From Azolla caroliniana (Eukaryota > Plantae > Polypodiophyta): DNA of 64,000 nt. Under the pieces are notes generated by a model. The model saw nothing but the letters and a program-made list of their open reading frames with translations. It was not told the origin of the DNA and made no database searches. The translations under genes and the position numbers were made by a program. Shown here in pieces: positions 1 through 64,000 of this stretch (positions within the stretch are counted from its first letter, which is position 1; every line of letters starts with the position of its first letter). The stretch lies in NCBI GenBank assembly GCA_043228905.1, contig JBHGNT010000001.1, positions 32,426,001 through 32,490,000 on the forward strand, in the 5' to 3' direction.

Positions 1-245
1 CCGAGAAGAATCTAATGTAATTTGGAATTTGAGAATGTGTGTGTGTGTGTGTGTGTGTGTATAACAATAAGAGAGAGGTTGAGAATATACTAAGGTTTGA
101 TAATAAATAAATAAAAGGTGAAGAAAAGAATATAAGGTGGTTCAATAAAGGTTGGGAATATACTAGAATTTGAAAGGTAGAGAGAAGTATTCCACTCAAG
201 GAAAGATGCACGTATATATGAATATATAATCCATAATAATAACTC

Positions 246-1145
246 ATGGATAATTCAATTAGGGACTATCCTAATGATCATCATCATCATCCTCATGAAA
301 GGCAATTAGGTGATGATCAAAGGGAGGAAGAAGAGAATGCTAATGATGAGGGGATAGATGTGTATAATGCAACAAGGCATGGTGGGCACGAGCAAGAAGA
401 AGAAGTTAATGACAACAACCATGAAGATGACGAGGAGCTTCTAGTGGTATATAATGTAACGGCCCAACAATTAAGGTATCATATAGCGCAAGCTACCATG
501 GAGGTGGACATGGAAGGCAATGCTACAAGTAATTGTAGCAATGGTGGTGGTTGTGATGGTCCACCAAATGCCCATGTCTCGACAAACACACGATTAGAGG
601 AGGGTCATGATTATTTTGATTGCCATATTTGCATGGATGTGGCACAAGATCCCGTAGTCACATGTTGTGGTCACCTTTTTTGTTGGCCTTGTCTCAGTCG
701 TTGGCTCAATAATTGTGCTAATACTCCGTGCCCTGTATGTAAACATCATCTTCATCCCATTGTCCCCCTTTATGGTCGTGGTAAACCTTACTCCCCTTAT
801 AACATGCTTGGAGACCAATGCCCTCCTCGTCCTCGGCCCCCTATTCTCCTCAGACCTTCCCCGAGCCCCCTTTCATCCTCCACTACTTCCCAAGCTTTAG
901 ATTCTTTCAATCCTTACCCCTTCTCCAACCATTCCCATCTCAATGTTGACATCGACCTCATTGACTCCCCTCATCGTTCCATAACCACTAGTCCAACTCC
1001 CTCTTCTTCAACTTCTTCCTCTTCCAATTTTATTGCCTCCTTTCGTCCATTATCATTCCCTGTGGACGAAGAAAATGAAACCCTTCTAACAAAGCTTTAT
1101 GTTGCCTTTGTTTGTTTAATCATTACTCTTATTATTTTCATGTAA
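246..1145 (+). CDS. RING-HC (C3HC4) E3 ubiquitin ligase, RMA1/RNF5/RNF185-like, tail-anchored
   Basis: 299-aa single-exon ORF with [28 protein letters not shown]...CPVCK, followed by VPLYGRG and PPRP motifs. Hydrophobic C-terminus ([16 protein letters not shown]) and acidic/His-rich N-terminus. Confidence 0.9.
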
Positions 1146-45100: not shown

Positions 45101-48100
45101 GCAGCATCTTTACCCTATTACCTCAGGCTATGTCTGTTTGAACATCATTCTATAAAAGAAAAATACGTTCTCATCCTCAATTATCATTAACTTCTCTTAC
45201 AAAGTATGAGAGATGCCATAGTAGCTATTGCAGGTGAGGTCGATAGCTCCTGAGTTCAATAGACGTTATGCCTCAAATGTGTCCATAAATGTTTTAAAAC
45301 TTCCTTCATATCAAGACATATGTTATGACATCTCCTGCATTGAAACAAGGTTCAACCTTGTATACCATTAGATATAAAATGTCCTCTCATCCTATGGCTT
45401 TGCCTCCACATATAGCAAGCATATATACAATTTACTAACACAGTCTTAAACATATGATAAATTCTTCAACGGTACAGCGCCAGCACATTACCTTCTCATA
45501 AAATCCTCGGAATGACCAGGATACTGTAGTACATTTCCTGAAACATACAAAGAAAGGAATGGATACTATGCACAATGAAGATGCTAGCCAGAAAACAGCT
45601 TCACTTTCAACAAAACGGTCATACGCATAAGTAGATAACAATAGTACTTTGGAGGATTGAAAGTCTCTCCAACTTGCCGCCACAACTTGTTAGCTGTCAC
45701 CTGCATCAAATAATGAGAAGCCTGTTTTAAAACAGCAACAATAAGTGCATTTATTTGTAATCCCATTATCATACAGTTCGGCAGGATAACTTTCTACTTT
45801 TCACTTTATTCAAAGCAATTTAACCCATCCTGTAGATCTCAGCAAGATGTGAAATAGGAGAAAGAGTTTCCTCATTTCAAAACTTAGGAGATGTTTGGGT
45901 GTTTTAACAGATGTATTTACATAAAAAGTATACATCTGCAAGCCACTGAAGATAGATTTATATAACACCCACATTTGAAATAGTTTCTATTTAATTGAGG
46001 CACAAGATAGAAATAAATATATGTTAGTGATTGATAAAAATGAAAATAAGACAAGAAAGTACACATTTTCAAGTTATGAGAGACGCAAATAGATAGAATG
46101 AGCAAATCATGTGTCAGCTCAGAAGACTAGGGAAAATTAGAGAATTTGATGTAGGTTCTATTCAGATATATATAGTGAGGAAGCAAATTCATATTGAAAA
46201 TTTTACAGCACCATTTTTATGATTTTTCAGCAAACAGACACATTAGAACCATCAAAAAATTCTCAAATACCCTGGAAACAATGAAACCAATTTTTTATTT
46301 CACAAGCTGAAGGAAGCGGTAGGAAGTCACCATTTCCAACAACTATACATTCTATCTAATCTATTTTCTTTTTCATCCATCTTGGAAATATCCTTATAGC
46401 ATTGATGTTAAGGAAATTATCCATGTTTTACTCTGATCACAAATATAGTTCTCCAATCTTTTACGTTCCAAATATCCATTATGCATTATCACACTTCAAA
46501 ACACAAATAATGGATGTCTGTGCATTCCTTTCTGAAATCGAAAAACATATGCATGTAGCAAACTAGAGACAGTAACAAAGAACTTACATAATCATATGCT
46601 CCCAGTCGGATGACAGTTCTCCATAGCCTGCAATGGCAAAGAAATATTTTTTTATCCTATCCTCAGAGAATACTTCGCCGATTTATGATTCTATTTGCTT
46701 ATAAGTTGTTTCCAAGGAAAAGCTGGATTTTTGCACAAATATTCTTTTAATTTCTCTTTTTTGATGACCTTATGCAAGAAGTTTTAGACAGTTTCTCAGA
46801 TGAGAAAGAGAATCCACTTCAAAGTTTAAATATGCATGCAACATAATGTATATGGGTATGGAAGCATGTTTGAAGTATGTTTGAGGTCTCAGACTGGAAT
46901 AATCGTTACCCTATTTTTTTCATCCGTCATATATATACAATGTTACAATTCTTTTTGTTCCACTTTCCCTGATGTTTCCCATTTGGAAAAAAGAGCCTAA
47001 TTTCCTTGATGCTTCTCTATAATGCTCAACATAGCACGCTTCTGCAGGCAAGGCAAAGCATACCTATTAAGCTCGTTTTCCACCTCTCCTAAACAAGTTC
47101 ATCATTTTAGTTCTTTTTTCGCAAAATTGGGAAACATAATAGGAAAACGTCTGACACTTTGTGCATTGACAGAATAACATGAATTTTTGCAGCAGAATGT
47201 AGATTATCCATATGAGAACACATCATTCGGAAATAGAAAATAGAATCAACGGGTAGATGTTTACAATGAATACTATGTACAAGGAAAACAACAAAATACC
47301 CAGGGCACAAAAACTTGAACAGATTGAAAAGCCAATGGCATAAAAAAAACCAGTTACTTCAGCGGATTAAAAGCCAGTTAAAAGTCAAGACAGAAAAAAT
47401 ACACTTGTGAACTGATTACAAAGTGAGGCAAAAAAGGTCAGTCACTTCAGCAGATGACAAAAAGAGGTCATGTCAACAGATTAAAAAGTCAAGATACAAA
47501 GATAATCAATTAGTTAAGCTGATAAGAACCACAAAAAAAAGCATAAAAATCACTCATTTGAGCAGATTAAAAAGCTAAGGCACAAAATAACAACATAATT
47601 CAAGGTGGCGGCACAAGGAAAAACATATATGAGCAGATTAAAAAGTCAATTCACAAAAATACCAGAATAATGTCTACAACGAAAAACTTCAGGCAAAAGT
47701 GAATGGCAATCGTCATGGAAGATACAGAAACCACGTTTTCCTGGGCAGATTAAAAAGCCAACTGCAAAAAGTCTTGCAAGGCACAAAAAGATACACTTTT
47801 GTAGAGCATAGGAGGTAAAAATAACACTTACTAGAGAATAGTAAGCTAAACAATACTGCTTACTTGCACATGGTAAACAAACGAAAGGCCAATTGCATGA
47901 GCTTATCAATTTAAAATAAACATTACTTACTGGAGCATATTAAGGTTAGTTCCATAGAATCTGGGAGGCCGGTACTCCATTTTGCGGTTGGATAGGAAAC
48001 GTGACACCTCGCGAGAGAATTCTTCTTGCTCCTCAGGTGTTCCTGCATCTAGTTCTGGTGGCCTTTTCAAGAAGTCTAGAACACTAGGTGGCTCTTGTGG

Positions 48101-48826
48101 TTCCTTCTCTTCTTCTTCTTCTTCTTCATCTTCTTCTCCTTCAGAATCCTTATCCTCTTCTTCTTCATCTTCATCGTTGTCTTCTACTCCTTTTCTTACC
48201 TTCTCTTCTAATTCAAACCTTCTTGCTGCATCTTCATCTTCTTCGACCCCTTTTCTTGCATTTTCATCTTCTTCTTCTTCATCTACATATTCGTCTTCTT
48301 CATCGTCATCTTCAGTCACTCTTCTCACATTTGCTTCTTCTTCATCAATTCCTCTTCTCACATTTTCTTCTTCGAATTCTCTTCTTCTCAAGTTTTCGTC
48401 TTCAATTTGCCTTCTTCTATCTATATCTTCTTCATCATCTTCCTCGTCATCTTCCTCGTCGTCCTCTTCGTCGTCCTCTTCATCATCCTCTTCTTCTTCA
48501 TCTTCTGCGAGAAGAGGGCCAGAGTATTCTTCTTCCTCAGCTTCTTCTAGGCCTTCTAGCTCATCTAGAAGCTTCCTTTCTTCATCATTCGTGCCGCCTC
48601 CTGCTCCTTCTTCTTCCTCCTCCTCTTCATCATCGTCGTCTTCGTCGTCTGCTTCTGCTTCTGCTTCTGCTTCTGCTTCTGCCTCTGCTTCCTCCTCTGA
48701 GAAGGTATCTAAGGTCTCTCTCTCCCCTCTTCGCCTTCCACCTCCTCTTCCTTCTTTCTCTCTTTCGTCTCTGTCTACTCTTCCGTCGGCGTTCGAATCC
48801 ATCGTGCCAGGCCTGGCTATGGCCAA
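42120..48826 (-). CDS. ARID/BRIGHT DNA-binding protein with C-terminal alpha-crystallin/HSP20-like domain, 11 exons, ~605 aa
   Basis: Exons 48826-47931, 46627-46588, 45700-45648, 45537-45492, 44282-44175, 43945-43844, 43766-43721, 43636-43353, 42861-42811, 42706-42614, 42218-42120 (1818 nt). ARID: PPRFYGTNLNMLQLWRTVIRLGAYDYVTANKLWRQVGETFNPPKKCTTVSWSFRGFYEKSLLDYE. Also GRARRDAATRAMQGWHSQ and ACD ADWVKINVHKTGDCFEVYALVPGLL...NPWGVTPFRKVIKLPSAID...TLHGQLFVRVPY. The exon-5 donor has a possible alternative. Confidence 0.88.
44736..45240. repeat. ~250-bp tandem duplication in ARID intron 4
   Basis: TGTGCTACCTCTGCATA...GAATCATGGTTAATATGACAGAGAACCC...CATCATTCTATAAAAGAAAAATA...GTAGCTATTG occurs twice. 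Confidence 0.85.
47310..47800. repeat. Degenerate array of the motif (A/G)CAGATTAAAAAG(T/C)CAA in ARID intron 1
   Basis: Variants at ~47319, 47361, 47411, 47449, 47476, 47517, 47561, 47632 and 47744, with irregular spacing. Confidence 0.65.
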
Positions 48827-49569
48827 GGAATCTCTCTCTCGCTCGCTCGCTGTCTGTCTGTCTGTCTGTCTGTGTCTGAATAGCCCCCTCTCTCTTTTCT
48901 TCTTCTTCTTCTTCTTCTTCTTCTTCTCTCTCTCTGAGACTCTCTCTTTCTCTCTCTACTAGCTCTGTCTAGGTCATAAAACCTCTCTCTTTCTCTTTCT
49001 TCTTTCTCTTTCTCTCTATGTGTGTATCTCTAGTTCAGACGACCTAAATTCTCTCTCCTCCTCCTCCTCCCTTGGTTCCTAGGATTGTCCTGAGATGTGT
49101 CTTCGGGTTTGGCCCGGGTGCCGGGCCGGCCGGGAGCCCGAGGGCCCGGTCGTCTTTCATGGAAGCTTACCATAGGAACCCCGCCTTCCTCTCACATTTA
49201 CCTCATATTCCCGCCTTCGTATGGAAGGATGCACATCCCCCCCCCCCCCCCATCCCCTCCTACGTTACTTGGTGGCCCTCCCGTGTGTTCTGGAAAAAGA
49301 AACTTGCTTTCCAGCCCCAAAAATGTTCTGTAAATGTCAATACTTTGTCTCTACCCCAAGCTCAAAATCAGAACAACTCTTCCCCAAATGCTAATTACCA
49401 GACAGTTTGACATAAAAAAGCATTGTTCTCATAGCCAAACACATCATGTAAAATGTGTCTATGAGCCATATGCTCTGAATTCTCTCTAACTTCTTTGTCT
49501 ACGTATATCATGGAACACACACACACACTCTCTCTCTGATATAAAAGAGTGTCTTTGGTTTTGACGAAC

Positions 49570-51450: not shown

Positions 51451-52196
51451 TCAAGATGGAATGACATTTTTTGGATACTTGTCATAACTCGTTCTATATG
51501 CCCTAAACGTTGTCGTGAAGATTTTCGTCCACAAGCGGAAACCCGAGCAACGAGAGCCAAAGAGCGATGTGCAACGTTGCACACGTACATAATGTATTTG
51601 TAATAGTAATAAAGGTATAAAGGTGATGTGGTTGTACGCACATCCACGCGAGAGAGAGAGAGAGAGAGGTACTATGCGGTACATAGGTACCTAGTTGTTT
51701 GTGAGGAGGTGGGAGTTAAGGGGCCATCAATCTCACCCTCCCCCAAATCAAGGCAAATATGCCCTTTGAATGAAAGGGGATATTTTAGTCTCACTTTTGT
51801 AAGCGGTCTTCCCTCCTTGTGCTATAAAAGGAGAGAGAAGGCACCATTGTGGGGGTTGCCTATTTTGTGTGAGTAAGGCATACCACTTAGTCGAGGGTTC
51901 TACTTCTTCCCATTTCATTTTAGGGTTAGGGTTTCGGTTACGGTTTTCTTCTTGGGTTTTCCTTTAGGGTTTTTCATATAGTCATTTGGTGCGGCCATGG
52001 CGGCCACCATTTTGTTGTAATCATTCATTTCTTAATAGAACTTCTTGTTGAGTATCTTGATTGCATCTTCTTCTTCTATCATAATGTCATATTCGTTCAC
52101 TTCTCCTCTTGAGCTAATCTTTCTCCTCCACTCCCTAGTCCAAGATCCCCGTGGTCCCGCCTTTCTCCACGCACGCGCATAATAACGTGACATCTT

Positions 52197-52213
52197 TGGT
52201 GAACCCGACGTGA
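52197..52213 (+). other. Primer-binding site complementary to the tRNA-Trp 3' end
   Basis: TGGTGAACCCGACGTGA lies 4 nt after the LTR-terminal CA. It is one base different from the ASLV tRNA-Trp PBS TGGTGACCCCGACGTGA(T). Confidence 0.8.
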
Positions 52214-52229
52214 AAGGCGGCAAGGGAGG

Positions 52230-53779
52230 ATGGAGTCGGAAGACGACAACCTTGCGGAGATGGTGGCCGAAGTGGTGTTGGAGTCGGCACGAGTGGTGAT
52301 GAGGCGAGAAGCAACGCAACAAGCGGTTGGGTGAGTAGTCGAAAGAGTCGGCCGTTTCAACGGGGACAAAGTCCCATCTTACTTGGAAGCCTACAACGCG
52401 GAAATGGAAGAGCGTGGTGTAGACGAGGCGTTGAGGCTGGAGTTCTTCTGCCGGGTCGTAGCTGTTCGGATGCATGCGGAAGTAATGGAGCTCCGTGAGG
52501 CTCGTGGTTCGTGGGAGGCCTTCGAAGAGGCGCTCCTGAAGGCATACGGAGGACGGCGGAAGAGCCGGGGACGGCACCACTTCGACCAGTGGGTAGCATT
52601 GGCAAAGACCCACCGGGGTGCGACAAAGGCGTTCCGGGAATTCGAGCGACGACTTGCTCGGCTCCCAGAGCGGGAACAAGGTTTGGTGGGGGCGGAGCGC
52701 TCCTGAAGGCATACGGAGGACGGTGGAAGAGCCGGGGACGGCACCACTTCGACTAGTGGGTAGCATCGGCAAAGACCCACCGGGGTGCGACGAAGGCGTT
52801 CCGGGAATTCGAGCGACGACTTGCTCGGCTCCCAGAGCGGGAACAAGGTTTGGTGGGGGCGGACAAAGTCCTTTTGTTTGTCAGGTCGATCGATCGGGCG
52901 GAATGGGAAGCCATCGGGATTGAGCTCGAAGACGATGATGGAGCGAATGGGCTTACGGAGGACTGGTCGAAGGTCGGAAGGGTGTGCCAACGGCTAGATG
53001 ATGAGCGAGCCGAGAGGGCTAAGAGGAAGGGACGCGACGGCGTGCCATCATAGCGGGAAGAGGCCGAACGGCAGGGAGAGTCGACAAGGGTCGGCGTTGG
53101 GGCCAGGATTGCGGAGGCGTACGCAGCTCTCAAAGTGATGCTCGAGGAAGAAGGAAGATCGAGGCCGGAAGCCGAGACCGAGGAGACGGACTTGCCCCAC
53201 GCGACGACGGAAGATCGGTACGACGGTACCACGGGAGAGGGTGCGGAACGAAACGCTCTCTCGACATGCGGAGAGAGAACGGCCAAGGACGAGGCCGAGA
53301 TACCGATCGAGGAACCGGAACGTTGGGACCAACGGTTTCGGGCGTGTCAGCATGAGATCCCGGTCATTGGAGAAGCAAGCCCAGACGGGGCTTGCGCGAT
53401 CGGTAAGAAGTCGACCACCGACCACGGAGAGCCGGTGGCTACGGACAAGGGCGTAAAACGGACGGGCAATTCCTTGTGTCTTCCCACACTTGCTCCCGAG
53501 ACGATGGCAGTTGGGCCCTAGTGCCCACGTGAGTCCCAAGTGGAGGAAGGCGGCGACGAAGGGCCAAGAATCACCGGCGTGACGATACGGGGAAGGAGCG
53601 GACGAAAGCCCACGGACCCGATTCTGGAGAACTCGGCATTCGGGCCCGTATGCCCATGTAAGACCGAAGAGATGGATGGCGGTACCGAGGAGTCCTGGCA
53701 CGATGCCAGCGAAGTCGGATGGGAAACGGCCTGCGAGGAGGCCGAGGACGGACACGGCACGAGAGGATCAACATTCTGA
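52230..53779 (+). pseudogene. Degenerate gag (capsid-like) plus acidic extension of element A
   Basis: RFNGDKVPSYLEAYNAEM...KVLLFVRSIDRAEWEAIGIELEDDDGANGLTEDWSKVGRVC aligns by eye with element B gag LFVKSVDERDREQVGLLLETEDGLTTDWAAVKKVC. Broken by TGA/TAG stops and a 167-bp duplication (52531-52697 vs 52698-52864). Confidence 0.75.
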
Positions 53780-55243
53780 TACGGGTGGAGCGTAATCCGG
53801 TCGTGGATCGTTCGATCGGGGCCGAACTCGACATGAAGGGGCCGATGCGGGAGAGGGTGCGGGACGAGCCGCCCTCTTTTACATGGGGAGAAAGACCGAC
53901 CGGGCGAAGGTCGAGATTTGGAAAGAGAATGAAAGCCGGTCCTATGGGTTGCCTTACACCGATCCGGCTGCAGGCCCGAGTGCCGGCGTGAGTCCGACAA
54001 GAGAGTCGGTGGCGACAGGAGAACGGGACTCGGCAATCCGGAGGAAGGATGAACGGACCCGAGCGAGAACCGGGCGGAGTGGACTCCGGGATGACCATTC
54101 CGGGAGGGAGGAAGAGAGCAAGGCCTACGAAGAGGCCGAGGAGACGGTACCATGGTACCACGGGAGAGGGTGCGGAGTAAACCACCCTCTCGGCATGCGG
54201 AAAAGGACAACCCGGGACAAGGTCGGAAAATAAGGATCGGAAGCCTACGAAGGATCCTTCACACCGGTTCTAGAGACTTCGGCAATCGGCAACGCGGTCG
54301 ACGTAAGACCAAGATACTGACGGTGGCGGCGAGGTGACGAAGACAATGGGCGTAAGGAAGTTCGGTCCTACGGGATCCCCACACCGGTTCCGGAGACTCC
54401 GGTTGTTCGGCCAACGTGGCAACGTAAGACCGAGGGAGAAGGAAGGTGGCGGCGGGAAACGGGACCCGACTACGCGGAAGACACGAGGAGAGTCCGGGAG
54501 GGACTCAAACAAAAGACGCCCGACTTTCGGTAAGCATAGAAACGGAGTCTGGCCCTATGGGACCCTCACACTGATCCGGAGACTCTGGCAGTTCGGCCAA
54601 CGTGGCAACGTGAGACCGGGGGAGAAGGACGGTGGTGGCAGGGAACGAGACCCGACGACACGAGGTATCGGAAGGAGCCGATAGGGGTGAACACGGGGAG
54701 GTGTGTCAGGCTGGAAAGGCACACCTTGGATAGAAAAATAGTCTTGCGAGTGGCCATCACGGGCCGGATCGAAGCGTGACTATGGGACGGTGCTCGGCGT
54801 GGGCGAGGCCGAACGAAGGAAGCGGAAGACGGCACAAGGGAGGTGCCGAGAACGAAGGGACAAGTGCCTAGTGGACTGCACAGGGTCGGAACCAGGACGA
54901 CAAGAGAGGCCGGAGGAGGATCCTCCACACTCGCTTCGTAGATCTCGGTAACTCCATTGAAGTAACAAAGACGGACACGGCAAGCCGGGGTGACAAGCTG
55001 GTGGGGGCGAGGGGACAACGGCAAGCGAAAGACCCAGGACCTGTTTCAGCAGCACGACGACGGGAAGGGCCAAGCGGGCTACTACGGGGTGTTCCTCGGA
55101 TGCAAAGGACACCGGTATGCGGGTGAACAGCGATGCACGATCAGGCCGGAAAGGGGCCAACGAGGAGTGCAACACGGGCAATACCAAACAACAGACGAGG
55201 GTAGGTGACACACGGAGGTGCCGGAGCGGAAAGGCGAGCGCGG

Positions 55244-56036
55244 TGTCGAGATATTACGCAAGTGCGTGTGGAAACGAGGCGGGACCGCGGGGGTCTCGAA
55301 CCAAAGAGCAAGCGAGGGAGGAGAAAGAGAGAGAACCTGCTACGCAGGACCGGGGATACACAGGGACACGGCCCTTCAGCACGGAGAACGCGAACAGACA
55401 CCGACACAAACAAATGCGAATGACTAAATATGTATATTAACAAAATGGCTAACACGACTACAACCCTCGATGGGGCACAGGTTGGTTACAACCGAACAGG
55501 CCGGCGAACAGATGCCGATGCCTGTTCGCTTCGACGCACAAAGGGGGGTAGCAGGTCGGAGGTGCTGCCGGAAGCACTCGGGCGTTCCTCGAAACAGCGC
55601 GAGCCTCCTCGGAACCCTGCACAGAAAGCTATGGAGCTCAAGAAGGAAGGAAACAGAGAGAGAAGCGTCCAGAAACGGTCCGACAGCACTTCGTCCTCTC
55701 TGCGCGAGATGCCTGCAACAGCTCTTTCCTGCTCCTTATATAGGCCGACGAGCAAGCCGTCATGTCAGCTTTATTCCCTGTCCCTTTCGAACAGGGATCC
55801 GCTCTGTTCTTCACGCATCCGCGTAGTTACGCCGCCGACTCGTACAGTTCCTTAGCTCGCGCGCGCGACCAAAAAGACTGTTCGCGCGGTCTTTGTCTCC
55901 ACTTGTGTTAGGGCCCGTTCCTGCCGATTATCCTCCTAATTCGCTTCTATGTACAACTTGGAGCGTGCGCGCGTGAAGAACCGGTTCCCACGCCTTGGTG
56001 CGCCGATTATGCTTATGGACGGTTTTCTTCACGACA
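55244..56036 (-). repeat. 3' LTR of element B (793 bp)
   Basis: TG...CA termini, preceded by a PPT, TATA-like CCTATATAAGG at ~55745-55734. Both ends resemble the ends of LTR 51511-52192. The adjacent 5 bp (CGCGG, 55239-55243) is the candidate TSD. Confidence 0.85.
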
Positions 56037-56107
56037 TCCGCCCCCACCTAACCGCGCATCCTCCGGTATGCGCCAAGAGAGTTGGGACGGAGAAAACCGG
56101 CCCATCT

Positions 56108-59100
56108 TCATTCCTCGCCCGTCGGTTCTTCCTCGTTTTCGGATCGTTCGTCACTGCTGACTAGGAGAGCCGGGTCTGGCTCGTCGTCGTGTCGCTTCTT
56201 GAACGCTTTGATCCGCTTCCCTGCAACCGGTATCGCCATTCTCGTGCCGTCGAGTTCCGCCAGGTGATATGTCCCGTTGTCATTGGCGCTCCGTACCACG
56301 TAAGGCCCGAACCACCTTCGTGCGAACTTCCGTGTAGCTCGGTGCTAGTTGTCGAGGCTGCTGTCGTAGACAAGCACCCAGTCACCTTCTTCGATTTTCT
56401 TCGGTCGGAGCCGGTGCGTTCGGTCGAACCTGGCTTTGTTCTTCGTCCTCGCCACTCGGAGCTTCTCCGCAGCCAGTTCCACGTCCTCCGGTCTCCGCTC
56501 GAGCTGTCGTATACGCGCGGCCAACAACTCCTCTCGGCTCATCTCGTCCCTCCAATCGACCGTTGCCCATGAGGAGATCGTCCGTTCCATCGGCATGATC
56601 GGCTTCTGGCCGAACATAAGCTCCGTCGGCATGTACCCGGTTACCGAACTGTGCGTAGTCCGGTCTGCCCACAAAGCATAAGGTAGCAGCCGCGGCCAGT
56701 TACCGACTCGGCCTCCACATGCCCGAACCAACGCCTTGACGATCGGTCCATGTCCGCGCTCCACCTTTCCATTCGCCTCCGGATTGTACGCAGTGGTGAG
56801 CGAGAGCTTGACTCCCGGCCGGTCGAACAGCTCCGCGGCTTCTTCGGCGTCCAACTCCCCTCGGTCAGCCACGATCTTCTCGACGCACCCGTACCGGCAT
56901 ATCATGTCCTCGATTAGGAACCGACATACGGCCGCGGTCGTTTTGTTCGGAAGGGCCCGGCCTTCCACCTGGTTCGTCAGATCCTCCCGCGCTAGGACCA
57001 GGTACCGCATCTGTCCTACTCCCATTGGCATCGTTACCAGATCTACCATCCATTTGAAATGGATGGCCGGAGGGTACGTAGGGTGAAGCTCGTCTCGATG
57101 TCGGACTATGGAGTGCATCTGACAGCTCTCGCAAGTTGTCACGAACCGATGCACGTCCTGGTACTGCCCCGGCCACCAATACTTCCCCTTCAGTTTCTCA
57201 AACGTAGCCCATGTTCCACGGTGTCCAGCCCAAGGGCTGTCGTGGTAGGCCGCTAGCAGCTCCTCATGATCTTCCTTCATTGCCACCACCCGGAGCGGGA
57301 CGCCGTTCCTCTTCTTCGGGTGCTTCCACAAGTATCCCTCCCGGAGAAAGAACCGGTACGCTTTCTTCCGGATCCGGTTGGCCTCGTCCTTCGTCCATGA
57401 CGCATCGGGCGTCATTGTCTTCAAAAACCCACCGATCTGCAGCCACTCCCCGTCGTACTTGCTCGCGTCGAAGTCGCTAAGCGCCGGAGTGCTTGTTCCG
57501 TCGGTTGTTACAAACGCAGTCTCGAAGAAGTCCACGCCGACCTCTTCGTCCTCCGAAACCATGCCGCCCTCGTCATCGAATCTCGCCCTTGAAAGCATGT
57601 CGGCTATGGCGTTGTCTTTCCCGGAAATGTGTCGTATTTCCGGGTCCAGGGACTTGATGTACGCTATCCACCTGAGCATTGCCAGGTCCGGCGTCGCGCA
57701 TCCGGAAACCATGCCGAGAATCGGCATGCAATCCGTCTCTATGATTACCTCTGTCCCGATCAGATAGTCCTTGTCGGCCTTCACCGCCGAAACGATACCC
57801 CAGAGTTCGCGTTTAACCTGGGCGTATCCTCGCTGCCGCTCACTGAGGACCTTCGCGCCGAATCGGATCGGAAACCGATTGCCGTCCTCGTCTTCTTGGT
57901 TGACGACCCACCCGATTCCGGTCGGACTCGTGTCAACCGTTATGTACACTGGGGTGCCCTTCCTGTAGACGGCCTTTCGGAGCGCCGGTGCTGCCGAAAG
58001 AGCCTCCTTCAGCTTCCGGACCGACTCCATGTGCTTGTCTAGCCATTCGAATCTTCGCCCTTTCCTCAATAATCCGTATAGCGGCTCCGCAACGTGGGCG
58101 TAATGCGGGATCCATATGTGGTAGAATGCGCATGCCCCCAGGAATCTCCGTACTTCCGTGACCGAGCTGCAGTCGGGCTTCATCGCGGAGATGGCTTCTA
58201 CCTTTGCCGGAGACGGTTTCCGGCCATATGGCCCACATAAGTGTCCGACCACCATGATTTCCGACTGCCCGAAGGCTGATTTCTCCCCCGAGAAGGTGAG
58301 CCTCGCATCCTCTAGCCTTTGCAGCACCTTCTCGCAGTCGTCGATGTGCGTCATCACGAATCGCCGGCATCCGTCCGGCCCGATCGTCTCGTCCTTCTCT
58401 TCTACCGGGCATCCCTTGATCGGGATGTCGTCTAGAAACGGCATGGTGATGTCCGGGATGCAGTCCCTCAGCACCTTGTTCATTGCATTCACCATGTGGG
58501 CCACCGAGTTGGTCCCTCCTTGCAGCAGCGTACACATCCGCACTAGGCCGAGGGGAGTTCGCATCGTCGTAATGTCTCTGCTCTCCATGGCTAGCTGGAA
58601 TTGGTCGTACCCTGAGTATAGATCACCGACCGAGTAAATCGACCTTCCGGCGAAGGCCTCCGCGAACTCGTCTATGGTCGGTCCGATCCCTGCGTTCCGA
58701 ATGGTCACTCTATTGACCGGCTGCAGGTCCTGAATGAAGCGCAACGATCCGTTTTTCTTTGGTACGGTAAACCATCGGTTTGAATACGGGGCGCTCGACG
58801 GCTCGAGAATGCCCATATCAACTTTCTGCTTCAACAGCTCCATCAACTTCGGGATGTGAGCTCTCGGAACCGGAATTGGCTTGAGATTCCACGGTACATG
58901 CGGTACCGCGAATATCACCATCGGCTCTACGATCGTCGGGTCTACGCACCCGATTTCCTCCGGTGAGAATGCGAAGGCTTTCCCGTGCCTTCCGAGCATT
59001 CTCCGAAACCGGTCTTCCTCCGCCGGTAGTAGGAACCCGCCCCCACCGATTTTGAGCTCCCGGAGCGTCTCGTTGGTGAAGGTGTGTCCTATGCAGGCCG

Positions 59101-59596
59101 GATCTCGTAAGCTGGGGTCCGATGCAACCCCTTTGATTCGCGACTCGCTGCCCTCCGGTAAGGGCGCCGCAACTGGCCTCACCTTCCGGTCCACAGTCTT
59201 GTACTTGGTGCTAACTCGGGCCATCCGTTCCGACTCGAGCCCTCGACCGAAGTCCGCAATGACTTCGTACATTTCTTCTGAACATACCGGTATCGTCCGG
59301 TCTTCGTTAAGGTCTTCTTCGACTACCTTCCCCAGCATTCCCAAGGTGTCGTTGAAGGAGACTGCCTCCACGGCTCCGTTGATTTCTTCGTCAGGGCCGA
59401 GAACTCCGCACGCTCGAAGTCTCCCCTCCGTCTTTGTTTTCTCTCGGCCGGCGATGCCGACCATCGTACATGCTCCGCTGTCGGAGAAGCAAAATTTCCT
59501 ACCTATTGTACACGGTTTTATCGTACAGATGTGGGGTTTTCCCGGAGCATCCGGACTGTCGCGGCCCCACGCCTTGGCAGTCCTCTCTAAAAATCC
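56108..59596 (-). pseudogene. pol (RT-RNaseH-integrase), downstream copy, one premature TAG at 56345
   Basis: RT DLYSGYDQ, FLDD. RH VDTSPTGIG, ETDC, ADMLSR. IN HHCC (YHDSPWAGH...CESC), WMVD...ADRG...VERGH. WFGPYVV continues in frame past the TAG to the stop at 56108. Confidence 0.9.
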
Positions 59597-59693
59597 TCTC
59601 GGTTTTCGGAACCGAGGGAGTCGCGGTTACGTTCGTGGTTCGGTCGTACCGTCAGAAACTGGACCGAATGGCGCCCGTCTTGGCTTTTGACCC

Positions 59694-62302
59694 TCGCGCT
59701 AGGACCAGGTACCGCATCTGTCCTACTCCCATTGGCATCGTTACCAGATCTACCATCCATTTGAAATGGATGGCCGGAGGGTACGTAGGGTGAAGCTCGT
59801 CTCGATGTCGGACTATGGAGTGCATCTGACAGCTCTCGCAAGTTGTCACGAACCGATGCACGTCCCGGTACTGCCCCGGCCACCAATACTTCCCCTTCAG
59901 TTTCTCAAACGTAGCCCATGTTCCACGGTGTCCAGCCCAAGGGCTGTCGTGGTAGGCCGTCAGCAGCTCCTCCTGCTCTTCCCTCATCGCCACCACCCGG
60001 AGCGGAGCGCCGTCCCTCTTCTTCGGGTGCTTCCATAGATAGCCATCCCGGAGAAAGAACCGGTACGCTTTCTTCCGGATCCGGTTGGCCTCGTCCTTCG
60101 TCCATGACGCATCGGGCGTCATTGTCTTCAAAAACCCACCGATCTGCAGCCACTCCCCGTCGTACTTGCTCGCGTCGAAGTCGTTAAGCGCCGGAGTGCT
60201 TGTTCCGTCGGTTGTTACATACGCAGTCTCGAAGAAGTCCACGCCGACCTCTTCGTCCTCCGAAACCATGCCGCCCTCGTCATCGAATCTCGCCCTCGAA
60301 AGCATGTCGGCTATGGCGTTGTCTTTCCCGGAAATGTGTCGTATTTCCGGGTCCAGGGACTTGATGTACGCTATCCACCTGAGCATTGCCAGGTCCGGCG
60401 TCGCGCATCCGGAAACCATGCCGAGAATCGGCATGCAATCCGTCTCTATGATTACCTCCGTCCCGATCAGATAGTCCTTGTCGGCCTTCACCGCCGAAAC
60501 GATACCCCAGAGTTCGCGTTTAACCTGGGCGTATCCGCGCTGCCGTTCGCTGAGGACCTTCGCGCCGAATCGGATCGGAAACCGATTGCCGTCCTCGTCT
60601 TCTTGGTTGACGACCCACCCGATTCCGGTCGGACTCGTGTCAACCGTTATGTACACTGGGGTGCCCTTCCTGTAGACGGCCTTTCGGAGCGCCGGTGCTG
60701 CCGAAAGAGCCTCCTTCAGCTTCCGGACCGACTCCGTGTGCTTGTCTAGCCATTCGAATCTTCGCCCTTTCTTCAATAATCCGTACAGCGGTTCCGCGAC
60801 GTGCGCGTAATGCGGGATCCATATGTGGTAGAAGGCGCATGCCCCCAAGAATCTTCGTACTTCCGTGACCGAGCTGCAATCAGGCTTCATCGCGGAGATG
60901 GCTTCTATCTTTGCCGGAGACGGTCTCCGGCCATATGGTCCACATAAATGTCCGACCACCATGATTTCCGACTACCCGAAGGCTGACTTCTCCCCCGAGA
61001 AGGTGAGCCTCGCATCCTCTAGCCTTTGCAGCACCTTCTCGCAGTCGTCGATGTGCGTTACCACGAATCGCCGGCATCCGTCCGGCCCGATCGTCTCGTC
61101 CTTCTCTTCTACCGGGCATCCCTTGATCGGGATGTCGTCTAGAAACGGCATGGTGATGTCCGGGATGCAGTCCCTCAGCACCTTGTTCATTGCATTCACC
61201 ATGTGGGCCACCGAGTTGGTCCCTCCTTGCGGCAGCGTACACATCCGCACTAGGCCGAGGGGAGTTCGCATCGTCGTAATGTCTCTGCTCTCCACGGCTA
61301 GCTGGAACTGGTCGTACCCTGAATATAGATCACCGACCGAGTAAATCGACCTTCCGGCGAAGGCCTCCGCGAACTCGTCTATGGTCGGTCCGATCCCTGC
61401 GTTCCGAATGGTCACCCTATTGACCGGTTGCAGGTCCTGAATGAAGCGCAATGATCCGTTTTTCTTTGGTACCGTAAACCACCGGTTCGAGTACGGGGCG
61501 CTCGACGGCTCGAGAATGCCCATATCAACTTTCTGCTTCAACAGCTCCATCAACTTCGGGATGTGAGCTCTCGGAACCGGAATTGGCTTGAGATTCCACG
61601 GTACATGCGGTACCGTGAATATCACCATCGGCTCTACGATCGTCGGGTCTACGCACCCGATTTCCTCCGGTGAGAATGCGAAGGCTTTCCCGTGCCTTCC
61701 GAGCATCCTCCGAAACCGGTCTTCCTCCACCGGCAGTAGGAACCTGCCCCCACCGATCTTCAGCTCGCGGAGCGTCTCGTTGGTGAAGGTGTGTCCTATG
61801 CAGGCCGGATCTCGTAAGCTGGGGTCCGATGCAACCCCTTTGATTCGGGATTCGCTGCCCTCCGGTAAGGGCGCCGCAACTGGCCTCACCTTCCGGTCCA
61901 CAGTCTTGTACTTGGTGCTAACTCGGGCCGTCCGTTCCGACTCGAGCCCTCGACCGAAGTCCGCGATGACTTCGTACATTTCTACGGAACATACCGGTAT
62001 CGTCCGGTCTTCGATAAGGTCTTCTTCGACTACCCTCTCAGCATTCCCAAGGTGTCGTCGAAGGAGACTGCCTCCACGGCTCCGTTGATTTCTTCGTCAG
62101 GGCCGAGAACTCCGCACGCCCGAAGTCTCCCCTCCGTCTTTGTTTTCTCTCGGCCGGCGATGCCGACCATCGTACATGCTCCGCTGTCGGAGAAGCAAAA
62201 TTTCCTACCTATTGTACACGGTTTTATCGTACAGATGTGGGGTTTTCCCGGAGCATCCGGACTGTCGCGGCCCCACGCCTTGGCAGTCCTCTCTAAAAAT
62301 CC
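59694..62302 (-). pseudogene. pol, upstream duplicated copy (RT-RH-IN zinc finger), inactivated
   Basis: Near-identical to 56987-59596, with a 1-nt deletion near 62036, an in-frame TAG at 60972, and truncation at the duplication junction (~59694). Confidence 0.9.
62237..62302 (-). promoter_or_regulatory. Candidate -1 programmed ribosomal frameshift signal (second copy at 59531-59596)
   Basis: G GAU UUU directly before the gag UAG. The -1 frame is open into pol. Complementary segments GGACUG/CAGUCC and GUGGGG/CCCCAC start 6 nt downstream. Confidence 0.75.
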
Positions 62303-64000
62303 TCTCGGTTTTCGGAACCGAGGGAGTCGCGGTTACGTTCGTGGTTCGGCCGTACCGTCAGAAACTGGACCGAATGGCGCCCGTCTTGGCTTTTGACCCT
62401 CGCGTAGGCCGAACCATTGTCCAGCACCTTGGTCTCCATCCGCGCCGCCGTGATGTACGGCTCTCCCAGTATGACCGGATGCGAAGACGTCTCCTGCACG
62501 AAGAAGTGCTGGTCAATCTCGACGTCGCCGATCTTGACTCGCACATTCGGACAGGCCCCGTGCAGCTCCTCGGTGGCGCGCGTTGCCGCCCTTATTTTCC
62601 ACCCGTGCTTGGTGTTGATCGGCCATTTGCCCTTCTTATAGAAGTCCATGGACATCAAGTTGATCTCCGATCCGTGGTCCACCAAAGCTATCACCGGTTC
62701 CTGGACATCGCCGATCTTCACCGGGGTTTCCGTGGTCGCTCGGGCCCAGTGTGGTCTCGAATAGTGGCTTTCCGCCCACTCGTCTCCCAGCGCTATGTCG
62801 TCTAGGTGCGTCGTCTGCACTCCCACTGGTCTTTCCGGTTCTGTCTCCGTTGACAGCCTCTTCCGTTTCACCAAGTCCACGATGGAGTCGTGGAACTCCT
62901 TCTTGGCGATTCCCAGCACCTCTCGTAACGACAGCTCCACCTTGCTGTCGAGGATCCGTTCCTCCAGGACCTTTCGTAAGTCCGTGGTCCTTTCTATCTC
63001 CGTCCCCAGACGGTACCCGCCCTTCTGGGGTTTATCTTTCGTACCGGCCCCGCCGGCTTCGTCCCGTCGTGGCCCGGACCGGGTCTCGTATCGTTGCGAG
63101 GGCCCGGTCGTCCCGGGTTTCCCCACCCGCTTCTCTTCTACCAGAGCCTCGTAGTTCTGGCAAGCGGCTTCCACGAAGCCCGTCCTTTCCTCGACCGGGT
63201 CGCTCCACCCGGTCATCTCCCGTACCCGTTTCTCCGCGCGGTCCGATTCCTCCCCTTTTAGCCTTGCACCGGCAAGGCCTCCCAGCATCGTCGGCCAGAA
63301 TCCGGCTTTGCTTTCCCTTCGGGCCTCGCCGCCCCCGACTCGAATGCCGGCCGACGCCGAGTAGTGGACGGTTTCCGCGTGTCGGGCCGCCGCCTCTTCC
63401 ATCAACCTTTTCATACCACCTCGCCCGTCGTTTCGGCTCAGGGCCCTTCGGGTGTCGCTGGCATGCACCCGCCCTTCCCACAGGTACACCACCCTGTCCC
63501 TTAGCGCCTCCGCGAAGTCGCCGCAGTCCTTCCGAATGTGGCCGACTTCATCGCACCACATGCACCTGTTTCCTGCCGCCGGCCGTCGGTCACGAGCCGG
63601 TTCGCCACCTTCCCTTCGGGCTTGCGCGATTTGGAGGTCCTTTACCGCCCTCGTCAATTCCTCCAGCGCCGCTCCTCCGGTTGAGCCTCTGACTACGCCG
63701 GTCGAAGCCGAACCGGTTTCCAACCACTCTCGGGTCTCTTCCTTTCGCACCTGCGGCGCTGGTTCGAACTTCCTTGCTGCGACCGAGCCCGACCCGGTTA
63801 CCCCGTTATCCGCCCATTCTCGCCGTTTGTCGAAACGGCCACAGACTTTCTTGACAGCCGCCCAGTCGGTAGTGAGCCCGTCTTCGGTTTCCAGCAAGAG
63901 GCCCACTTGCTCCCGATCCCGCTCGTCGACCGACTTGACAAACAGCAAGACCCGGCTCGTGTCCAGGATGGATCGGTCGAGCGCCGAAAGGCGCGCAAAG
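62293..64000 (-). CDS. Gag-protease ORF of element B (5'-truncated by the window edge)
   Basis: Open for 551+ aa. Zinc knuckle CMWCDEVGHIRKDC; aspartic-protease-like ALVDHGSEINLM and VILGEPY; ends ...NREDF*. Confidence 0.9.
   Translation of the reverse strand, partial: FARLSALDRSILDTSRVLLFVKSVDERDREQVGLLLETEDGLTTDWAAVKKVCGRFDKRREWADNGVTGSGSVAARKFEPAPQVRKEETREWLETGSASTGVVRGSTGGAALEELTRAVKDLQIAQARREGGEPARDRRPAAGNRCMWCDEVGHIRKDCGDFAEALRDRVVYLWEGRVHASDTRRALSRNDGRGGMKRLMEEAAARHAETVHYSASAGIRVGGGEARRESKAGFWPTMLGGLAGARLKGEESDRAEKRVREMTGWSDPVEERTGFVEAACQNYEALVEEKRVGKPGTTGPSQRYETRSGPRRDEAGGAGTKDKPQKGGYRLGTEIERTTDLRKVLEERILDSKVELSLREVLGIAKKEFHDSIVDLVKRKRLSTETEPERPVGVQTTHLDDIALGDEWAESHYSRPHWARATTETPVKIGDVQEPVIALVDHGSEINLMSMDFYKKGKWPINTKHGWKIRAATRATEELHGACPNVRVKIGDVEIDQHFFVQETSSHPVILGEPYITAARMETKVLDNGSAYARVKSQDGRHSVQFLTVRPNHERNRDSLGSENREDF

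Follow-up and report, generated by a model that had tools for sequence, protein, structure and literature searches.

Ogre and Retand, two plant Ty3/gypsy retrotransposons of the Tat group, have polyproteins that are split between protease (PR) and reverse transcriptase (RT), the protease going with Gag. The split is made by a spliced intron in Ogre and by a single stop codon in Retand, and the passages and table drawn on here from PMC6317226 list neither element with overlapping frames; in Additional file 5 of that work no lineage has a PR/RT overlap as its prevailing form. Overlapping frames do prevail in Tcn1 and Selgy, Ty3 lineages of non-seed plants, but there the overlap is between Gag and protease, and the same passages and table contain neither the direction of the shift nor a signal. 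For a further lineage, Phygy, the organisation of open reading frames (ORFs) is given as 'ND' (Neumann et al. 2019, PMC6317226). The element described here is a long terminal repeat (LTR) retrotransposon on the minus strand of a 64,000-nucleotide stretch of the Azolla caroliniana genome (contig JBHGNT010000001.1, positions 32,426,001 to 32,490,000; hereafter the window). It appears to be of Phygy type, its frames overlap as in Tcn1 and Selgy, and the overlap joins Gag-PR to RT, RNase H (RH) and integrase (IN) at a conserved heptamer followed by a covarying two-stem RNA, which together very probably drive -1 ribosomal frameshifting. A preliminary description of this DNA had proposed the split of Gag-PR from RT, which stands for this element, and had contrasted it with the single ORF, readthrough or splicing of many plant LTR elements, a contrast that is overstated, such a split being known in Ogre and Retand by other means.

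In avian sarcoma and leukosis virus (ASLV) the protease lies in the gag frame and is made at Gag stoichiometry. Rous sarcoma virus (RSV)/ASLV and the Azolla element would be alike in a -1 shift between overlapping gag and pol; they differ in the heptamer, and the element has no env and a plant host. The stimulators of dianthoviruses and umbraviruses are bulged hairpins with long-range pairing, unlike the compact H-type pseudoknot predicted here in a nuclear retroelement. The element shares its G_GA-type heptamer with red clover necrotic mosaic virus (RCNMV) and pea enation mosaic virus 2 (PEMV-2), and PEMV has G_GAU_UUU with a stop nearby; G_GA is a known X_XX variant for -1 shifting in these plant viruses, and typical -1 spacers are 5–9 nt (PMC5009743).

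The window contains the following components of the cassette, all on the minus strand.

62302-62296 (-), slippery heptamer G_GAU_UUU, covering the last two sense codons (D-F) of Gag-PR, which ends GAG GAU UUU UAG
62295-62293 (-), Gag-PR stop codon UAG, the first 3 nt of the 6-nt spacer UAGAGA
62289-62282 (-), 5′ arm of pseudoknot stem 1, placed by pairing in the alignment and by two-sided changes
62266-62259 (-), 3′ arm of pseudoknot stem 1, placed on the same basis
62276-62271 (-), 5′ arm of pseudoknot stem 2, GUGGGG, inside the stem 1 loop
62242-62237 (-), 3′ arm of pseudoknot stem 2, CCCCAC, complementary to GUGGGG
62248..62260 (-), CCGGA/UCCGG hairpin in loop 3, overlapping stem 1, seen by eye in alignment A2 and only in the window's subclade
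62335-62333 (-), TAA closing the -1 frame upstream and restricting the gag/pol overlap to 12 sense codons
59531-59596 (-), second cassette of identical sequence, within an internal duplication and with no Gag-PR upstream

The heptamer, stop codon, spacer and both stem pairings lie where the preliminary description had placed them, and the -1 frame does begin 10 codons upstream, after the TAA. The heptamer has the X_XXY_YYZ form, with an accepted X_XX variant, and sits within the ORF overlap with a 3′ structure at a distance within 5–9 nt. Stem 1 of the window has 6 bp, plus one further pair beyond a C.A mismatch. After the second cassette the frame is open for 44 codons up to an ATG at 59464, as described; this had been called the annotated pol ATG but is merely the first in-frame ATG, and its position varies among relatives. 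The two cassettes are indeed identical, but because the second lies inside an internal tandem duplication and lacks Gag-PR upstream it was rejected as independent support. The loop 3 hairpin, offered as part of an elaborated pseudoknot, was likewise rejected as a feature of the lineage, being confined to the window's subclade and absent from the consensus fold.

The cassette is real and is conserved across the whole lineage. Relatives were collected from metagenomes (best 80 of 327 loci, 54 of which contained both the protease end and RT) and from the element's own genome (the first 30 of 961 loci, chosen on an upstream protease motif, 28 of which contained both). The pol frame lies at -1 relative to gag in 52 of the 54 metagenome junctions and at +1/-2 in the other two, which belong to a sister clade described below; it is at -1 in 26 of the 28 own-genome junctions, and the remaining two have an intact gag stop with indels downstream. 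No fused single-frame gag-pol ORF, and no intact relative with gag and pol in one frame, was found in either set. All of the 30 top DNA matches also have the arrangement, but these were selected on the junction itself, so patterns lying only upstream were used as the basis. Of 229 copies of the window's family that have an upstream 18-mer, 209 are unchanged over the following 15 nt, and all nine of the exceptions that were fetched (9 of 20) keep the heptamer, the stop and the -1 frame.

Clustering at 85% identity gave 33 clusters, from which 30 representatives with RTs 64–98% identical to that of the window were used; L049, L058 and L081, single copies that are degenerate, deleted or stop-mutated, were excluded, and in six clusters the first member was exchanged for a less decayed one. 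The pol frame is at -1 in 28/30 representatives, and between the gag stop and RT it is free of stops in 29/30, where the other frames have 3–25 stops. An in-frame heptamer of slippery type is present at the end of Gag-PR in 30/30 (G_GAU_UUU in 22, G_GAU_UUC in three, G_GUU_UUU in two, and G_AAU_UUU, A_AAU_UUU and G_GGU_UUU in one each), against a background of 64 in 12,347 codons (0.5% per codon). L105 and L117 were missed in the heptamer search of the structure analysis, which covers 28/30, and were recovered for this tally. The gag stop immediately follows the heptamer in 24/30 representatives, such that the placement in the window prevails without being the universal rule, and the stop codon itself may be TAG, TAA or TGA. 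Among 92 Gag-PR proteins called from ORFs, 66 end exactly in DF or NF by a strict script class, and 90/92 end in DF, NF, GF or VF plus 0–5 residues by manual tally of the listing. Several Physcomitrium Gag-PR models end in KDFGEVPL, which, from the protein alone, agrees with an unchanged site followed by a stop further on. In one subclade (P0149-P0180, L117, and Physcomitrium and Adiantum models) the gag stop is five codons past the heptamer, inside stem 1/loop 1, and some of its members end in GF, consistent with G_GGU_UUU. RT is under purifying selection, with dN/dS (ratio of nonsynonymous to synonymous substitution rates) of 0.14 or lower where synonymous sites are unsaturated.

Compensatory changes occur in both stems. 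RNAalifold recovers stem 1 unaided; across 22 sequences 97.7% of its cells are paired and four of eight pairs show two-sided changes, a result matched in 0/500 shuffles, and controls in which the whole structure was slid along the alignment are 31–54% paired. Among 17 divergent rows, two-sided changes are seen in 11 of the 14 pairs of the two stems, with a covariation score of 0.465, compared with 0.251 for shuffles and 0.13–0.18 for slid controls. The register of stem 2 moves by 1–2 columns between families, and complementarity between loop and tail was therefore scored family by family; the mean own score in 28 families, 15.3, exceeds the 13.3 of permutations across families (p=3e-5), and shuffled tails score 11.4 and downstream windows 9.9–12.6. 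The arms of stem 2 are wholly different in divergent families (e.g. GCGAGA/UCUCGC and GGUGAGU/ACUCACC). The conserved stem starts 6 nt 3′ of the heptamer in alignment A2, and automated picks give 3–7 nt where stems extend. The automated pick for L106 is a different hairpin but was still counted, and in alignment A3 L105 is cut at the wrong place and L113 and L114 are misaligned, all three being kept. Two interleaved stems that covary in this way are indicative of an H-type pseudoknot. Rfam covariance models gave no match at E<=5 in window 62150-62400.

Such a pseudoknot would stall the ribosome with GAU and UUU in the P and A sites, whereupon the two tRNAs could re-pair on GGA and UUU with a -1 slip. 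Translation would end at Gag-PR for the majority of ribosomes, with a minority continuing into Gag-PR-RT-RH-IN; protease would then be produced at Gag levels, and the fusion protein would bring RT and IN into the particle.

Two sister families, L101 and L146, which the preliminary description did not recognise, have a different junction. Gag-PR ends CAG GUU UUU (G/U)AC UAG and pol follows in the +1/-2 frame; both stems are retained and begin 5 nt past the heptamer of the AG_GUU_UUU site, which shortens the spacer by one base (junctions L101:2834-2914 and L146:2496-2576; in the own genome L151-L165 and L170-L199). These families are monophyletic (100/100) and nested among -1 families; the adjoining L106 and L107 read CAG GAU UUY UAG. 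One of the two families has at least 95 exact copies of the sister-clade motif in the own genome, with none in the control, and RT is in the +1 frame in 12/15 fetched copies. When 30 of 89 copies were taken by an upstream motif, all 30 have the shorter junction, 29 the heptamer and 25 the RT-start motif in +1. The LTR pairs of five full-length copies, selected because their frames are open, are 99.5–100% identical, and pol dN/dS between the L101 and L146 families is 0.085 over 1090 codons, indicating that pol is expressed somehow.

The sister-clade junction has the arterivirus-type pattern RG_GUU_UUU with the downstream ORF in the -2 frame. [quoted passage not shown] In PRRSV a complex of nsp1beta and poly(C)-binding protein (PCBP) acts on a C-rich motif ~10 nt downstream with no RNA structure, whereas in the sister clade an RNA pseudoknot lies at 5 nt and the shift would supply the essential RT, unlike that of PRRSV. 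The CCCANCUCC motif bound by nsp1beta/PCBP in arteriviruses is absent from the sister-clade junctions inspected; with CCCANCUCC missing and a pseudoknot present, the site may work like an arterivirus site without being a member of that group. Shifting by -2 is optimal at spacers 1–2 nt shorter than for -1 (PMC3458567), and after a -2 slip the distance from ribosome to stem 1 would be 7 nt, the same as in the -1 families. The resemblance of the site, together with this fit to the spacer-tension rule, makes it reasonably probable that the sister clade slips by -2, and a natural switch from -1 to -2 programmed frameshifting within one plant retrotransposon lineage is likely on the same grounds, to a similar degree. 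The change would have come about when the shift site lost one base, going from G_GAU_UUU plus 6 nt to AG_GUU_UUU plus 5 nt, with the pseudoknot unchanged and transposition continuing.

Several observations weigh against -1 frameshifting as read here. The fold of the window RNA alone is no more stable than those of its shuffles (z -0.4 to -0.9), so the evidence beyond chance comes from the relatives; it also has competing folds, none computed as a pseudoknot. The window's stem 1 is among the weaker ones of the family and is equalled or beaten by 6/45 control windows (19/45 for L127 and 14/45 for L112), stem 2 is only 69.7% and 77% paired in fixed columns, and the shuffle controls ignore relatedness while the structure was drawn from the same sequences. 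G_AAU_UUU (L113) is a poor heptamer, and the first 45 pol codons are weakly constrained (dN/dS 0.12–1.19 in nine pairs). The RNA evidence is limited to 626 reads from three polyA runs of one study, derived from copies 85–99% identical; they are few, come from diverged copies and lie on both strands, those over window 60900-64000 mapping to the two strands at similar depth. This low depth means that splicing and transcriptional slippage are only weakly limited by the reads. Production of pol from a spliced mRNA, with the stop removed and the frame restored, has a precedent in the Ogre intron at the same PR/RT boundary (PMC6317226), and Physcomitrium and Riccia gene models span the junction. Yet the 626 reads, at their low depth, contain no splice joint there, the ORFs overlap rather than being separated by an intron, and none of the 30 families has a donor-like site at a shared position (19/30 lack any scoring 7/9 or more). 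The gene models bridge the junction at different places, as would be expected when predictors patch a frameshift, and these introns are probably false ones placed over it; splicing, which also leaves the heptamer, spacer and stems unexplained, is improbable. Slippage of RNA polymerase II on the U5 run, adding a base in some transcripts, would account for the retention of five Ts in most families. It is more improbable again, as no indel at the U run is listed at ~40-fold summed RNA depth (threshold 3 reads and 5%), the G_GAU_UUC variants have just three Us ahead of the C, and the downstream pseudoknot would have no explanation. The window's own copy is broken and duplicated, as an accidental frame break amplified in a non-autonomous family could be, but relatives with RTs as little as 64% identical keep the arrangement, purifying selection acts on pol and neither the 54 metagenome nor the 28 own-genome junctions include an in-frame master element, which leaves this explanation scarcely credible.

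Separate translation of pol, by termination and reinitiation or from an internal AUG, is most relevant to the +1/-2 clade, in which the gag stop is preceded by a pol-frame AUG at 26 nt in the L101 family and at 17 nt in L146; ribosomes are known to reinitiate as far as 29 nt before a stop (PMC3542737). These AUGs count against a -2 shift, as does the weak support (84/83) for the sister relation of the clade to L106/L107. The two AUGs are nevertheless at different alignment positions, the clade retains the shift motif and pseudoknot, and the position of the first pol ATG relative to the stop ranges from -1 to +326 nt across the 28 -1 families, with no fixed place; unfused Pol would, moreover, require another route into the particle. 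Separate translation is thus improbable for the lineage at large, and for the sister clade reinitiation is a minor possibility because AUGs at such distances from a stop are known to serve. A slightly better candidate in the sister clade, although still unlikely, is a +1 shift in which the P-site UUU moves to UUG or UUU. It gives the same frame arithmetic as -2, L146 offers UUU_U, and plant elements with separate gag and pol frames have been reported as +1 (a 2003 survey cited in PMC5009743). What makes the +1 shift less likely is that the triplet available in most copies is UUG rather than UUU: UUU_G, found in 29/30 own-genome copies, is poor for +1 re-pairing, where a -2 slip keeps a perfect A-site UUU in both variants. 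The 3′ pseudoknot at 5 nt suits backward slippage, and -2 preserves the F-L/F-x-R-T register of the -1 families.

The element that carries the cassette has the order Gag(DUF4100)-PR / RT-RH-IN between LTRs of ~790 bp. Such elements are normally 7.3 kb and the window copy is 10.0 kb as a result of the internal duplication. Its parts are arranged as follows.

62293..64000 (-), Gag-PR ORF, running past the window end, with DUF4100 and then an aspartic protease at about 62775-62440
59695..62292 (-), first pol copy, with spacer domain, RT, RH and the start of IN, split into several frames
56345..59626 (-), second pol copy, 1093 open codons (RT, RH, IN), stopping early in the integrase C-terminus
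56037..56053 (-), polypurine tract
55244..56036 (-), 3′ LTR (TG..CA)

The 5′ LTR is located 464–1256 nt past the window end; the two LTRs differ at 18/792 sites and the target duplication is CCGC (4 bp). The internal tandem duplication of 2.7 kb (56988-59703 and 59695-62408, 97.3% identical) has a junction (59695-59703) at which a short microhomology links the integrase start with the protease end, perhaps through template switching as the element was reverse transcribed. Past the first cassette (L005) the -1 frame shuts after 90 codons, and the genomic copy in the window is therefore broken.

The LTRs, primer binding site, polypurine tract and Gag-PR-RT-RH-IN domain order are those of a Ty3/gypsy element, as the preliminary description had it, but its lineage had gone unnoticed. 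Matching 4-bp NCGN target duplications flank four of five full elements (ACGT, ACGC, GCGC, CCGC), the fifth having a mismatched GCGC/ACGC. In 5/5 elements the primer binding site is complementary to the 3′ end of genomic tRNA-Trp, the tRNA loci being called Trp(CCA) in 4/4. Neither a chromodomain nor an additional archaeal-type RNase H has a Pfam match in the window proteins (whose IN end is truncated) or is present among the precomputed domains of 120 pol homologues. The 4-bp NCGN duplication and tRNA-Trp primer site are signatures of Phygy, which the element also resembles in lacking a chromodomain (Neumann et al. 2019, PMC6317226), and from these characters we provisionally class it as Phygy-type Ty3/gypsy. 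In length the two are near each other, members of the window's family being 7.28–7.29 kb, slightly under the 7656–9968 bp of Phygy in one species, Physcomitrium, and those of the sister family 7.9–8.0 kb; the Physcomitrium range is no strict definition. The closest named homologues are from Physcomitrium, Riccia and Adiantum, with Physcomitrium patens proteins among the nearest, and the Physcomitrium Gag-PR homologues are 51–68% identical. Taken alone, these homologues would suggest a host among the seed-free plants, probably a moss. RLG1 of Physcomitrium carries a chromodomain and was rejected as the same family.

The protease assignment depends on PF13650, which 19/21 members match at E<=0.1 (best family E 1.8e-5), each match being weak singly; the best solved-structure match is Ty3 Gag-Pol (E=0.013). 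The catalytic triplet of this predicted protease (window 62679-62671, minus strand; alignment A4) is D-H-G in 17/21 members and D-S-G in 4/21, and a histidine at this position is unusual. Between the shift site and RT is a domain of ~130 residues (window 59200-59590, minus strand; P0001-P0120) with a conserved I-x-G-x-x-E-E, no Pfam match and moderate purifying selection (dN/dS 0.11–0.57). Sequences resembling the 3′ end of tRNA-Trp have 63 genome matches and are clustered at G000:C8:17796786-17823371, C16:4989495-5105657 and C5:10105608-10112201, the C8 cluster with a period of ~1.2 kb. The element is inserted within another GC-rich repeat, and neighbouring copies are nested in one another and in copia-like elements (both window 52000-55240, L031-L040). 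Elsewhere in the window, an ORF at 243-1145 (+) is presumably RING-finger-like by motif, and a very acidic ORF at 47927-48955 (-), which we take from its motif to be the possible start of an ARID-domain gene, is also present.

A 2003 survey, as related in a 2016 review (PMC5009743), has two types of plant element with separate frames, both +1 and none -1, and the passages drawn on from PMC7466625 do not mention frameshifts. No published description of the frameshift signal was found in a search that was thin on subscription journals and bioRxiv supplements, so that a moss genome supplement or a repeat database may already mention it. The signal is of a known kind in a new setting and is lineage-wide, relatives occurring in one moss, one liverwort and one fern; what is new here is the pair of sister families with a likely -2 site nested among -1 families.

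Pseudoknot-stimulated -1 shifting appears to be a third solution to the PR/RT boundary in non-chromoviruses, beside the intron of Ogre and the stop codon of Retand, and a frameshift explains why annotation pipelines call such elements broken or invent introns in them. The lineage offers one compact pseudoknot in 30 natural versions, among them a -1 and a -2 form matched within a single genome, and these make the spacer-length rule for shift direction directly testable in plant ribosomes. If the sister clade does slip by -2, an essential enzyme encoded in a eukaryotic nuclear genome would be supplied through a -2 shift driven by an RNA pseudoknot, and the switch between -1 and -2 would be a natural test of the mRNA-tension model.

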